Below, piece after piece: positions 26,865 through 52,701 of a stretch of DNA of 64,000 nt. Made by a program: the position numbers and the translations under genes. How positions within the stretch are numbered: position 1 is the first letter of the stretch; every line of letters begins with the position of its first letter. Source of the stretch: Mobula birostris (taxonomy: Eukaryota); NCBI RefSeq assembly GCF_030028105.1, contig NC_092382.1, positions 92,510,295 through 92,574,294 of the forward strand, read 5' to 3'. The notes below the pieces were generated by a model. It saw only the letters and a program-made list of their open reading frames with translations. It had not been told where the DNA came from and did not search any database.

Positions 26865-26952
26865 TCACAGGATCACTCTCAGTCTGGGCCTGTATTCCTG
26901 CAGAGATCTCAGTTCCTCCCTCCCGGTCTCACTGAACCGATTCAAGTCCAGC
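26865..26952 (-). CDS. NLR gene terminal exon
   Basis: tttcag acceptor; LDLNRFSETGREELRSLQEYRPRLRVIL*; phase 2 start. Confidence 0.85.
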
Positions 26953-27115
26953 CTGAAACAGACGGAAGAATGAAGAGGAAATAAACAGATTACACAACAG
27001 TGTCAGTACCAGGGGACTGGGGTTAATGTTTCATCAACACTCACAGACAAATATCACCAGAAAACCCGCAGATCCGCTGAATTTTATCACATTGAAGATC
27101 AACATGAACACTTAC

Positions 27116-27283
27116 ACAACACATTCCAGACTCGGGAGGGTCTGTATGAGGCTGCAGAGTGCGGGGACAGATTGGTCTGTGAGCGAGTTCAATCCCAGCT
27201 TCAGCACCGTCAGTGATTGGATTGCACTGAGAGCGTTGGTGAAATCCTCAGCACCAGAATCTGTGAGACCAACATGGTTCAGC
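27116..27283 (-). CDS. NLR LRR exon (168 nt)
   Basis: LNHVGLTDSGAEDFTNALSAIQSLTVLKLGLNSLTDQSV; AG/GTAAGT boundaries, phase 2-2. Confidence 0.9.
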
Positions 27284-27440
27284 CTAGAGAAGAGAGACAG
27301 AGTCAGAGTGAAAGACACAAAGAGACATGAAACAGTACAAATCCCTAGTGTTTATCAGTAACACAATTACTGATCACATGAATGTTCAGTGTCCGACACC
27401 CAGTGATTGTAAGCACAATCTCCCACAGTCTGGTACTTAC

Positions 27441-27611
27441 CCCAGTTTCTGTATTTTACTCTTCTGGATACTCAGAGCCTCAGATAATAGTTTTACTCCT
27501 GAATCTCCCAGTTTATTATCACTCAGGTCCAGCTCAGTCAGTGATCGGTTTGTACTGAGAGATGAGGTGAGATCTTTAACACCAGGTTCTGTGAGACCGA
27601 CATGGTTCAGC
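27441..27611 (-). CDS. NLR LRR exon (171 nt, RI-type LRR pair)
   Basis: [23 protein letters not shown]...KIQKL; phase 2-2. Confidence 0.92.
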
Positions 27612-27758
27612 CTGGTGAAGAAAGAGTGAAAGACACAGAGAGACGGGATACGGTACAAATCCCCGGTGTTTATCTGCAACACAATTACTGATCACATGAA
27701 TGTTCCGTGTCAGACACCCAGTGACTGGAAACATAATCTCCCACGGTCTGGTATTTAC

Positions 27759-27929
27759 ACCAGTTTCTGTATTTGGCACTCTGGGCTCCCCAGAGCTGCA
27801 GACAAAAACTTCACTGCTGAAACTCCCAGGTGATTATGACTCAGGTTCAGATCCGTCAGTGACGGGTTTGTACTGACAGCAGCAGCAAGATCATCGGCAC
27901 CAGAATCTGTGAGACTGACACAGTTCAGC
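27759..27929 (-). CDS. NLR LRR exon (171 nt)
   Basis: LTDLNLSHNHLGVSAVKFLSAALGSPECQIQKL; donor GTAAAT. Confidence 0.9.
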
Positions 27930-48450: not shown

Positions 48451-48559
48451 CAGGTGTTGACTCTTTCTTGCTTCTTTTCCTCTATATTTGTGAAATCCAC
48501 ACCAAGGCATTAAATCTGGAGCTGATGTCAAGGCAAAATTTATGCTTGAGGGTATTCTG

Positions 48560-49370
48560 TAGAGTCACCTGCGTGCCCACTGTGCTCCAAGCGATGAACA
48601 CTGGAGCACATCCTCAGCGGCTGTGCAAGGGCACTTGGTGAGGGACGGTACAGGAGGAGGCATGATCAGGTCCTGAAGACCATCGCTGAAGTCGTCAGCG
48701 CAGGAGTTGATTGGGCGAAGTGGTCCCGATCCTTCAAGCAGACCATTGCCTTTGTCAGAGCTGGGAAGCAGCCAATACCCGTCAAAAGAACATCTGCAGG
48801 CATTCTGACCTCTGCAAGGGACTGGCAGCTGTTGGTGGACCTCGAAGGGCAGCTGAAGTTCCCCAACCATATCGCAGCCACCACCCTGCGACCAGACATT
48901 GTCCTAGTGTCTGAGTCTACTAAGCAAGTGGTGCTGCTGGAGCTGACAGTCCCATGGGAAGATAGCTTGGAAGAGGCCTTTGAAAGGAAGCTCTCCAGGT
49001 ACGCAGGACTGGTCAGCAATTGTCAGCAGGCTGGATGGAGAACGAGGTGTCTCCCAGTGGAGGTTGGTTGTAGGGGATTCATGGCCCGTTCCTTAGCTAG
49101 AGCCTTCAGCATTTTGGGCATCGAGGGAGAGAGGAAGAGGAGAGCCATCCGCAGTACCAGCGATGGGGCAGAAAGGGCCCAAAGATGGCTGTGGCTCAAA
49201 AGAGAGGAGCCATGGAGTCATAAGTAGCTAGCCATCTGGACACAAGCTGGGGTCTGATCAGCCCCGGCTGGGTCACCTGGAGGAGGGTGTATGATGTTGA
49301 AAGACCTGAAACACCCGATGATTCCAGGAACATCACTGAAGCTGTGTCCAGAAGCATCAATAGATGTATA
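48560..49370 (+). mobile_element. HERO/NeSL-like non-LTR retrotransposon 3' end (CCHC knuckle + restriction-like endonuclease)
   Basis: CPLCSKR*TLEHILSGC...RHDQVL, then RPDIVLVS...LLELTVPWE...FERKLSRY...PVEVGCRG. Confidence 0.88.
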
Positions 49371-49589
49371 TACACAGAAGTGTAACACACCTTTCGTGCT
49401 GTCTGCTGTAAACAGAACGAGGATTCGCTGATAATCATCTGAAGGAAAACACTGCTTTGCGATCTGCTGATTCCTCATCTGCAAACTACCCTCTGTCAGG
49501 GAGGACAGAAACAGGCCATTTAGCCCATCATGTACATACTGATCATCAGCACAATTCCTGCAACCTCTTGCTGGTCCTATTACACATAG

Positions 49590-51050
49590 AATCGAGTCAG
49601 GTTTAATATCACCAGCATATGTCACGAAGTTGGTAACTGCGACAGCAGAACAATGCAATACATAATAATAGAGAGTAAAAAAAAACTGAATTACGGTTAA
49701 AATATATTGGTTAAATAAGTAGAGCAAAAATATAAATGAAAAATGAGTGAAATAGTGTCCATGGGTTCAATGTACTTTCAGAAATCGGATGGAAGAGGGG
49801 AAGTACATGTTCTGAATCGCTGGGTGTGTGGCTTCGGGTTTCTGTTCCTCCTGCCTGATGCTCACAGTGAGAAGAGGGCCTGATCTGGGTGATGGGAGTC
49901 CTGAATGCTTGATGCCGCGTTTTTGGAGCACCGCTGGGCTGCCATGAAGACTCTTACCCATGATGGAGCTGACCGAGGTTACGACCATCTGCAGCTGACT
50001 TCGATCCTGCACAGTAACAACACCCCCCACTCCCACCAGATGGTGACGCAGTCAGTCAGAGCCCTCTCCACAGTCCCTCTGCAGAAAATTGCGAGTGTTT
50101 TTGGTAACATGCCACACCTACTCGAGCACCCAGTGAATATAGACGCCGTCTTGCCTCCTTTATGGCCGCATCGATATGTTGGGTTCAGCTTAGGCCCGCA
50201 GAGATACTGACACACAGGAACTTGAAATTGCTCACTCTCTCCACTTCTGGCCCCTTGACGAGGACTGGTGTGTATTCCCTCACCTTACCCTTCCTGAAGG
50301 CCACAATCAGTTCATGGGTCTGGCTGACATCGAATGCAAGGTTGTTACTGCGGCACCACTCACCTAGCTGGTATTTCTCGTTCCCGTAAGCCCTCCCAAC
50401 AGCAGCTGAAATTCTGCCAACAATAGTTGTACAGTATGGTCAGCAAACTTACTTATGGCATCTGAGCTGTCCCTAGCCACAAAGTCCTCGGTGTAGAGGA
50501 AGTGGACCGTTAGGCTAAGGCAGTTGACTGTCAGCAAAGTGGAGATGTTACTTCCTTTTTGCTCAGGCTGTGGTCTTCTGATCAGGAAGTCGGGGATCTG
50601 GTTACAAAGGGGGATACTGAGGCCCAGGTTCTGGAGCTTTTCGATTACAGCTGCAGGAATGGTGATGTTAAATGCTGAACTATAGTCAATAAACAGCATG
50701 CTGACACAGGCATTTGTAATGTGTAATCCAGGGCCGCGCGAAGGAGCAATCAGATCACATTGGCCGTAGACCGATTGCGGCGACAGGCAAATTGCAGTGG
50801 GTCCAGGTCCTCAGGCGGATGTTGATCCTAGCCATAATTAACCGCTCAAACAACTTCATCACTGTAGAAGTGAATGCTACTCGATGATAGCTGTTAAAGC
50901 AGCTCACCCTGCTCTTGGGCACTGGTTTAATTGCTGCTCTCTTCAAGCAGGTGGGAACTTCCAACTGCAGCAATGAGAGATTAAAAAAGCCTTTGAATCC
51001 TTCTACCAGGTTGTTGGCACAGGTTTTCAGAGTCTTACCAGGTACTCCAT
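49590..51050 (-). mobile_element. Decayed Rex1/Babar-type RT and 3' end
   Basis: YHRVAFTSTVMKLFERL, MLFIDYSSAFN, SKFAD, YFPSSIRFL. Confidence 0.85.
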
Positions 51051-52490
51051 CAGGGCCGGTCGTCCAGGCAGTTACCTCTCAAAGGCAGAGGGGACATTTC
51101 ATCCTCTCTGGCGTCACGGATTGCAACAACCCTCTGTGCATTTTTTCCCCTCAAATCCTTTCTAAACATTTTCCCCATCACTCTAAACGAGAGCTTTACG
51201 ACCTTTTTGTGCAATGGACCCCTACCATTAACCAAGGGGTCTATGAACCCCCTGCTCTAAACCCATGCACTTTGCTCGGTCCTACTCCTGTTCCCAAACT
51301 GGCTATCACCTGGTATCCTGCGGCGATCACCCGAGAGCTGCGGCAGATTTCAGTTGCGGACCTGCCTGAGGAACAGGCTGCTGTATCAGCGTCTGCCTGG
51401 TGTGACAAGCCGAGAGAGGTCTGCCCCCCACCTGTCCTGTACTCACGGTCCCTTTCACACACCTTCCGTTATAGACTTCCCAGGATGAATTGATGATCGC
51501 ATCTCCCAGGACCCCACCCTACACGCTTGGCGTAACATTGCATTCACAGGCCTACTCCAGGCACCCTACCGTCACCGTGTCACTCATCGTCCCCTCCCTC
51601 GCGACCCCACCCTCCCCGGGTCGTGCGCTGCCCCGATTCCAGGACATCACCTCCCTCGGGTCAAACACTTCACAGAATGATGTTTGCGCCACAGCTGGGA
51701 GAGTGCGTGTGACCGGCCTGGACAGGGTGCAGAAGGGATTTACCGGCAAAGATCCACTGTAAAATGACAAATGGATCTTGATGCAGCCAAATGTAGGGTG
51801 CTGCGCTTCGGAAGGGCGAATCGGGGTCGTACTTACACAGTAAACTACAGGGCACTGAGGAGTGTCGTAGGACAGAGTGCAGATCCATAATTGCTCGAGC
51901 GTGGCATCACAGGTAGACAGTAAACATAGATTTTGGCACATAGATGAACGTATTGAGTGGAGCAGTCGGTGCGTTATTTTGAAGTAGTATAAAGATGGTG
52001 GTGAGGCCTAACTTGGAGCAGTGTGCGCAGCTCGGGCCACGCCCTACTGGATCAGGGCACATCAGCTGGCGTAATGTCTCACAGCCCCAGTGGTCCGCGC
52101 TCAAACCCTGCCTCTGTCTAAAGAGTCCACACGCTGCCCCGGTGACCACATGTGTTTCCGCCCTCCGCCCACACTCCAAGGGTGTTTGAGCCACGAGGTT
52201 AATTTGGCACAAGCGTATATTGGCGTCACCGTCTTGTTGTGGCGTGCTGTATGAACGAGGGAAGGGAGGGACGAGCACATTGTATCCTATACCCACTGGC
52301 TCGCGCTCATCTCTTTCGCCAACTACATGTTCTAAAAAGGTTCAGCGGACAACTCAAACAGGCCTGCCTTTGGTTAACATGTCCACGCGTTATGCTACCT
52401 CTTCAATAATTGCAGAATTAGTCAGAGTTCTGACTTAACATTTGACAAGGTACTAAACGTATAACTTGCAACTACTTGCAATGGACTAAC

Positions 52491-52701
52491 CTGCTTCATG
52501 TCCAAAGCGTGCAGACGGTTCTGGGACATCTGTGTCAGAAGGACAGCCTTGGTGAACAATGATGCCCCCGTGTGGATCTCCTTGGCATGGTTCAGAGTCC
52601 AGAGAACTTTGTGCACTGTCACTCGCGTTTATGAGGTGATCAGCTTCCCCATCCGGCGACTGTTCAGACTGAGTTTTGCAGCATGAGCATATTCCTCCCA
52701 T
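52491..52701 (-). CDS. Candidate first coding exon of the NLR gene (MGGICSCC..., predicted N-acylation)
   Basis: ttttgcag acceptor at 52719; gaaATGG Kozak; 70 codons +1 nt, ending CAG|GTTAGT in phase 1, matching the downstream exons. Confidence 0.55.

Follow-up and report, generated by a model that had tools for sequence, protein, structure and literature searches.

A CARD-less manta-ray NLR gene with a predicted acylated N-terminus, descended from an elasmobranch CARD-NLR family

What kind of receptor is encoded by a NOD-like receptor (NLR) gene whose product opens with a putative lipid-attachment motif and has no recognizable death-fold domain ahead of its NACHT domain? The question arises at a locus of the manta ray Mobula birostris (GCF_030028105.1, NC_092382.1:92,510,295-92,574,294), where a 64,000-nucleotide stretch (hereafter the window) was analysed and where the gene lies on the minus strand. 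The original prediction, made from the letters of this DNA, had read the gene as an NLR with a dual-acylation N-terminus instead of a death-fold effector domain, and as a member of a membrane-tethered class in rays. We find that the gene is genuine and well supported, with an unusual architecture, and that it is a CARD-less derivative descended from an elasmobranch CARD-NLR family, in which the predicted acyl tag was inherited and the CARD lost afterwards. The parts of the gene are, in order of transcription:

52702..52718, minus strand: 5' spacer, 17 nucleotides between an AG acceptor and the ATG, 5' untranslated region in the RefSeq models
52491..52701, minus strand: exon 1, first coding exon, MGGICSCCK and then an acidic Ser/Pro linker; copy of a phase-1 module of 70-77 amino acids
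41798..41887, minus strand: exon 2, 90 nucleotides, phase 1-1, disordered Ser/Gly/Thr repeat; absent in the Mobula hypostoma model
40557..40652, minus strand: exon 3, 96 nucleotides, phase 1-1, duplicate of exon 2
32894..40556, minus strand: intron 3, the site of the CARD exons in paralogues; 350 nucleotides are N
31159..32893, minus strand: exon 4, NACHT, WH, HD2, and first LRRs; P-loop GAPAIGKTT, Walker B LFIFDGLDE intact
30128..30214, minus strand: exon 5, LRR
27759..27929, minus strand: exon 6, LRR pair, used in RefSeq isoform X3 only
27441..27611, minus strand: exon 7, LRR pair, in isoform X1
27116..27283, minus strand: exon 8, LRR pair
26865..26952, minus strand: exon 9, last coding part, TGA; AATAAA at about 26201

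The nine-exon join proposed in the original prediction has correct coordinates and yields 2817 nucleotides (938 amino acids plus stop, starting MGGICSCCK), with GT..AG ends at 8/8 introns and intron phases of 1,1,1 followed by 2,2,2,2,2. This 938-residue form is intact, but it matches none of the four annotated RefSeq isoforms. A protein search with exon 4 returned 1315 matches (the family counts given here use the best 120, all from the rays Mobula, Hemitrygon, and Hypanus), and the top match was a RefSeq M. birostris protein with 100% identity, belonging to a cluster of four protein isoforms under five accessions (XP_072131630-34) that all begin MGGICSCCK and use exons 1-5. Isoform X1 comprises exons 1-5, 7, 8, and 9 (exon 6 skipped), isoform X2 comprises exons 1-5, 8, and 9 (exons 6-7 skipped), and isoforms X3 and X4 end just past exon 6 and exon 5, respectively. 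The LRR exons are thus alternatively spliced, and exon 6 (27759-27929) is intact and in phase, yet its one annotated isoform ends just after it. The orthologue of M. hypostoma is 88% identical over exon 4, its first 14 residues are unchanged, and its model splices exon 1 directly to the NACHT exon. The RefSeq models, this orthologue, and the transcript contigs described below agree on the linkage of the distant exon 1 to the NACHT exon, which had been proposed from phase and strand. Exon 2 and exon 3 plus flank are 71-72% alike.

In exon 4, Pfam identified NACHT (PF05729, E 1.6e-37), NOD2_WH (PF17779), and NLRC4_HD2 (PF17776), all above cut-off, as was LRR_6; NACHT scored 129 bits vs 14 bits for NB-ARC, the latter below cut-off. 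Both Walker A (GAPAIGKT, matching GxxxxGK[ST]) and Walker B (LFIFDGLDE) are present. A Pfam scan of exon 1 called no domain, and no PYD was found by Pfam in the protein, although its RefSeq name is NLRP. The structure model of isoform X1 was confident for the NACHT-LRR portion, including the LRR part, while residues 1-129 were unfolded (pLDDT < 50). A search of the ESM Atlas with residues 1-133 gave nothing usable.

The paralogues are built differently at this position. A domain of about 110 amino acids just before the NACHT exon was full in 100 of the 120 nearest paralogues, partial in 7, and absent in 13, the last group consisting of the Mobula pair (the M. birostris gene and its orthologue) and 11 probably incomplete models whose first residue falls at the NACHT exon or shortly ahead of it. 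Pfam left a CARD uncalled in 7/7 whole paralogues and gave a weak CARD in 7/19 isolated domains (best 9e-5). An AlphaFold model of the domain built from 19 copies reached a pLDDT of 95, and structure comparison matched it to the NLRC4 CARD (Z 12.4, root-mean-square deviation 2.6, 89 residues aligned), and almost every one of the 35 best rows was a CARD. Foldseek returned no match with E < 0.001, its top six rows being headed by the CARDs of NLRC4, ARC, and CARD8; a PDB sequence search with the domain found only the RAIDD CARD (E 1.1); and the ESM Atlas placed the paralogue domain with CARD clusters at 0.89, which serves as a lead only. Because the predicted fold matches the NLRC4 CARD, the N-terminal domain of the paralogues is, on these models, a divergent CARD and the family is CARD-NACHT-LRR. 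Pfam scores this divergent CARD weakly, and the 'PYD' names in RefSeq are misleading. Domains of this kind (e.g., residues 24-134 of model P0005) occur from rays to amphibians; a tandem pair of CARDs was seen in paralogue models P0038 and P0052, and P0128 of M. birostris has three tandem repeats before its CARD, with runs of Ser and of Glu and a stretch rich in His.

Was the CARD lost from the Mobula gene, or merely overlooked? Half-CARD profiles run against all six frames of the window, apart from the 350 N bases, detected nothing (best independent E-value 4.3), and the same profiles recovered 5/5 (first half) and 4/5 (second half) of held-out controls. No CARD remnant was found by tblastn of paralogue N-termini against the window, which is weak evidence alone, and no CARD occurs in the RefSeq isoforms or the orthologue model. 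The two N runs, at 33136-33307 (172 nucleotides) and 33363-33540 (178 nucleotides), flank a simple repeat, and in length each of them comes close to a half-CARD exon; these bases aside, the controlled split-profile scan and the structure model agree on the absence of a death fold that had originally been claimed. A quick IQ-TREE tree covered 48 selected NACHT regions. In it, the two Mobula genes group together (support 99) within a ray clade of 24 rows (support 97), the other 22 of which all have a CARD, and the tree requires four CARD-state changes, which fits the Mobula pair, Mustelus P0132, the Heterodontus pair, and two distant outgroup rows. The CARD was therefore lost secondarily in the Mobula gene, the unread bases excepted, and among ray genes bearing the exon-1 module this loss appears limited to the Mobula pair.

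The N-terminus that remains reads MGGICS, which matches M-G-x-x-x-S/T, with Cys5, Cys7, and Cys8 close to Gly2, confirming in the sequence the motif and nearby cysteines that prompted the acylation idea. The N-termini of Src and G-alpha proteins offer a comparison for dual acylation, and Gly2 of the Mobula protein is likewise predicted to be N-myristoylated and Cys5/7/8 to be S-acylated. With exon 1 alone as the query, the two Mobula proteins were the sole relatives to emerge from 13 candidates, and further ones came from a profile and a representative library. Among these, Hemitrygon P0264 and P0295 start MGGICTCIK, with the module repeated once and followed by a CARD; P0222 has three module copies plus a CARD; and the module also precedes the CARD in M. 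birostris P0077 (MGVTTSC) and in the P0114 cluster (MGSIFTK). The same MG exon stands before an intact CARD in 5/5 other full NACHT proteins on the tree that bear the exon-1 module (P0295, P0077, P0114, P0082, and P0124), and the two partial models P0222 and P0264 combine module and CARD as well. An acyl tag 'instead of' a death fold is not supported as the design of a class, as the same exon precedes an intact CARD in other ray NLRs. Because module and CARD usually coexist in ray relatives, the acyl motif predates the CARD loss; the tag was inherited and the CARD lost afterwards.

Is the motif maintained by selection? Gly2 was retained in 10/11 module copies and Cys7 in 7/8 long copies, and Ser/Thr6 was present in 5/6 N-terminal MG copies vs 0/4 internal copies (Fisher p 0.024; 0.040 with orthologues merged), a small and post hoc comparison of copies that are not independent. 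No other result of this analysis speaks for selection on the motif. A different kind of start was also observed in the family: a basic amphipathic helix at residues 7-18, ahead of the CARD, in 24/120 ray paralogues, including P0003 and P0016, with helix moments of 0.68-0.99 (e.g., P0016, MATGGKLNHVRKVLKRFL). Such a helix may represent a second kind of first exon that targets membranes, and it suggests that first exons in this family may act as swappable membrane tags.

How might a receptor built in this way work? The reading that we favor, though with only middling confidence, is that of a CARD-less, likely acylated, membrane-held and non-signalling receptor that serves as a sensor for, or a brake on, its CARD-bearing paralogues. 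Translation would start at MGG, as annotated in RefSeq. N-myristoyltransferase (NMT) enzymes attach myristate and ZDHHC enzymes attach palmitate; by its motif, the protein may undergo Met removal and Gly2 myristoylation, and then ZDHHC palmitoylation of Cys5/7/8. It would then be anchored at the plasma membrane or the Golgi, with about 130 unfolded residues as its tether. Having no death fold, it should not recruit ASC or caspase-1 on its own, and any output would have to pass via CARD paralogues, putatively through NACHT-NACHT contact in which it acts as sensor or brake. The inner P-loop Gly is replaced (Gly238Ala) in both Mobula species, a change that may slow nucleotide cycling, which in turn would favor a modulator role.

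A more autonomous function, in which the acylated N-terminus damages membranes or signals at them after oligomerisation, has a precedent in the plant receptor PML5, which, as far as the accessible part of its description goes, has lost most of its coiled coil (CC) and kills via its acylated first 60 residues (PMC11467418). PML5 requires a hydrophobic helix at residues 13-29 to do so, whereas residues 1-133 of the Mobula protein are acidic and Ser/Gly-rich (19 D+E, 5 K+R, 15 large hydrophobic residues), with a best hydrophobic moment of 0.51 and no predicted structure, and we consider such an effector very improbable.

Returning to the membrane-held sensor or brake, several observations weigh against it, and these concern the start codon, the motif, and the NACHT domain. 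Contigs of four runs (X1 to X4) were mapped to 33541-53540; the runs all come from a single study, their RNA status is only guessed, and run X3 was flagged as probably DNA. In part these contigs speak for the gene as drawn, since they support the borders of exon 1 and the exon 2-3 splice. The splice was found in 4/4 runs (contig joint 40650-41796 with CT..AC ends, a shift of +2), in keeping with the expected junction from 41798 to 40652, and the stretch 52718-52489, from AG acceptor to donor, was covered by a contig in 3/4 runs. The contig joints listed did not include those between exons 1 and 2 or between exons 3 and 4. Contigs of exon 1 extend by 25 letters in runs X2 and X3 and by 212 letters in run X4, where a contig of 442 nucleotides decomposes as 228+90+96+28 and has a depth of 72.8, equal to that of the exon 2-3 joint; because 228+90+96 leaves 28 letters, arithmetic places exons 1-3 on this one contig. 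An unspliced contig across the whole of intron 2 (40627-41825) was also seen in runs X1 and X2, beside the spliced form.

At the other end of exon 1, an AG acceptor lies 17 nucleotides 5' of the ATG, and the run X1 contig extends 186 letters beyond 52724, which contradicts the view of the 52.7 kb exon as the first exon. Because this contig continues past the acceptor, there must be an exon further upstream, into which the reading frame stays open; the MGG start codon therefore rests on the RefSeq models. Could the MGG Met then be internal, with a coding upstream exon, another N-terminus, and no myristoylation? The 17-nucleotide spacer has an open frame in phase 1, reads x-N-N-A-T-E, and resembles the spacers of internal module copies in paralogues, the upstream exon is spliced on, and P0124 and P0073 have coding sequence before the module. 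The gene models argue the other way: the MG Met is the first residue in all five RefSeq accessions, in the M. hypostoma model, in P0077, P0222, and P0264/P0295, and in each of the 15 P0114-cluster members listed. Positions -3 and +4 around the ATG are both G, a context in line with the Kozak rule for start codons, and Ser/Thr6 is typical of N-terminal rather than internal copies. On balance, an internal Met seems distinctly improbable.

Other copies of the module also weigh against the favored reading. A copy lies inside the protein in P0124, P0222, P0264, and P0295, an upstream Met precedes the one in P0073, and Gly2 is lost in P0082; moreover, a control first-exon module has Ser/Thr6 in 23/29 copies but Gly2 in 5/29, so Ser6 alone says little.

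The NACHT exon likewise departs from the family: of 299 near-invariant columns, 16 are changed in the window copy and 12 in the M. hypostoma orthologue, while the 118 other proteins have a median of 2 such changes and none has more than 14. This comparison is biased in that matches were ranked by likeness to the Mobula gene. The P-loop GAPAIGKTT occurs in 2/120 proteins, namely the Mobula pair, while GVPGIGKTT occurs in 89 and GVAGIGKTT in 21. Such departures would be expected of a gene that has taken on another role, but equally of one beginning to decay. In the second case, the gene would be a fading duplicate in a birth-and-death array, its CARD lost, its sequence drifting, its acyl motif a passenger, and its protein doing little. 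Such decay would account for the excess of changed columns and the altered P-loop, and it is consistent with a terminal branch of 0.10 vs a median of 0.038, with variants of exons 1 and 3 that alter the residue at 3/5 sites checked, and with the lack of a CARD-less exon-1 counterpart from Hypanus or Hemitrygon among the matches listed. However, both Mobula species keep the 577-residue exon open, with 88% identity between them, and the approximately 69 residue differences, if neutral, would have brought about four stops (a rough estimate, as only intact genes are annotated); the gene is also spliced, and the first 14 residues are the same in both species. We thus regard a fading duplicate as unlikely.

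How does the proposed sensor or brake compare with known systems? The nearest relatives are those of the elasmobranch CARD-NACHT-LRR expansion (RefSeq 'NLRP3-like/12-like'), with which the Mobula gene shares a clade, a NACHT exon 81-88% identical to the best 119 ray proteins, and an exon-1 module common to several members, and from which it differs in having no CARD and in its P-loop GAPAIGKTT. This ray family is possibly the same as the NLRP-related expansion of the whale shark, which the accessible text of the report proposes as a stand-in for missing NLRPs, and that text contains no description of N-terminal domains or acylation in the expansion (PMC8455134). The available portion of the manta genome preprint's main text (10.64898/2026.10.27.761883) names neither NACHT nor NOD-like.

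Plant N-acylated CNLs (RPS5, SUMM2, and PML5) are alike in carrying an N-terminal M-G-x-x-x-S/T with nearby Cys on an NLR. From what is accessible of one study, this motif is present in 65% of plant group II CNLs, SUMM2 is myristoylated, tethered, and works through helper NLRs, and the plant Cys is at position 4, whereas those of the Mobula protein are at 5, 7, and 8 (PMC13043302). PML5, in the accessible account, resembles the Mobula gene in the loss of most of an effector domain and differs in keeping its killing helix (PMC11467418). Plant CNLs combine CC and NB-ARC and their acylation has been experimentally tested, while the Mobula protein has a NACHT of the CARD family and a predicted acylation. 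Because plant NB-ARC/CC proteins stand against animal NACHT/CARD proteins, the likeness is convergent, and the Mobula protein is an analogue of the plant acylated NLRs and not a member of their family.

Among animal receptors, NAIP has BIR domains. NAIP-NLRC4 is similar in that an NLR acts via a paralogue, NLRC4 being downstream of NAIPs in the accessible part of the source (PMC9680067), with such pairing only proposed here. Mammalian NLRP3 is also a NACHT-LRR protein lipid-anchored at membranes, but by internal, reversible S-acylation at Cys130 and with its PYD kept, and the accessible part of that source describes no N-myristoylation of an NLR (PMC12224916). In the rice pair Pit1/Pit2, Pit2 suppresses Pit1, as stated in the available text (PMC11139913); unlike the proposed Mobula tether, Pit2 lost its membrane location. 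A preference of NMT for Lys7, as given in the accessible part of another report (PMC7048800), finds no counterpart in the Mobula protein, which has Cys7 and Lys9. The titles and abstracts searched, with subscription literature thinly covered, gave no description of an animal N-myristoylated NLR, and within the literature searched we found the acylated-sensor design described only for plant receptors. If the lipidation is true, vertebrates reached plant-type NLR anchoring independently, and the gene would be a model for the division of the elasmobranch NLR array into sensors and signalling units.

Do similar genes exist outside rays? In a survey of N-termini, as suggested with the original prediction, MG starts were also found outside rays. 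Of 150 representatives, 11 begin MG and 7 of these have Ser/Thr6. Mustelus P0132 (MGKLLSKSRC, followed by repeats) and Heterodontus P0205 (MGGGSSKKK) with its cluster-mate P0298 (MGNCCG) have no CARD, while Polypterus P0245 (MGHTSS) has one and frog P0215 (MGQSTTRC) has a CARD-like domain. These non-ray examples are gene models chosen for their MG start, so their co-occurrence with CARD absence is not an unbiased measure, and some MG models have isoforms with other starts (P0300 and P0303, the alternative first exon of P0300 being hydrophobic). An enrichment of Ser/Thr6 in MG starts (17/25 vs 38/211 distinct prefixes) was not accepted, since paralogy and an MxxGxSS module inflate it; after hand-collapse to modules, the count was 7/14 (binomial p 0.006 at 0.18, with a subjective grouping).

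The CARD-less MG-start shark NLRs fall on tree branches separate from that of the Mobula pair, and the idea of a class thereby has some support in that Mustelus and Heterodontus carry unrelated MG starts on CARD-less NLRs. A broader picture, which we find possible but doubtful, is that sharks and rays have a plant-style NLR network, in which swappable first exons tag CARD-NLRs with myristoyl/palmitoyl motifs or a basic amphipathic helix, and in which three or more separate origins (Mobula MGGICSCC, Mustelus MGKLLSK, and Heterodontus MGNCC plus MGGGSSKKK) gave CARD-less lipid-anchored sensors that monitor membranes and signal via CARD helpers; vertebrates would then possess N-myristoylated NLRs.

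The remainder of the window contains several repeats. A Penelope-like retroelement lies in intron 5 (28038-30073, with a weak GIY-YIG match, E 4.6e-4), adjoining the often-skipped exon 6, and similar copies are at 61588-64000 and 10767-11712. A LINE-like reverse-transcriptase fragment is located at 6558-7217 on the minus strand, with related fragments elsewhere in the window, and tandem arrays of 60-nucleotide and 21-25-nucleotide units occupy 7673-9254 and 3650-4258, where the open reading frames have no Pfam match.

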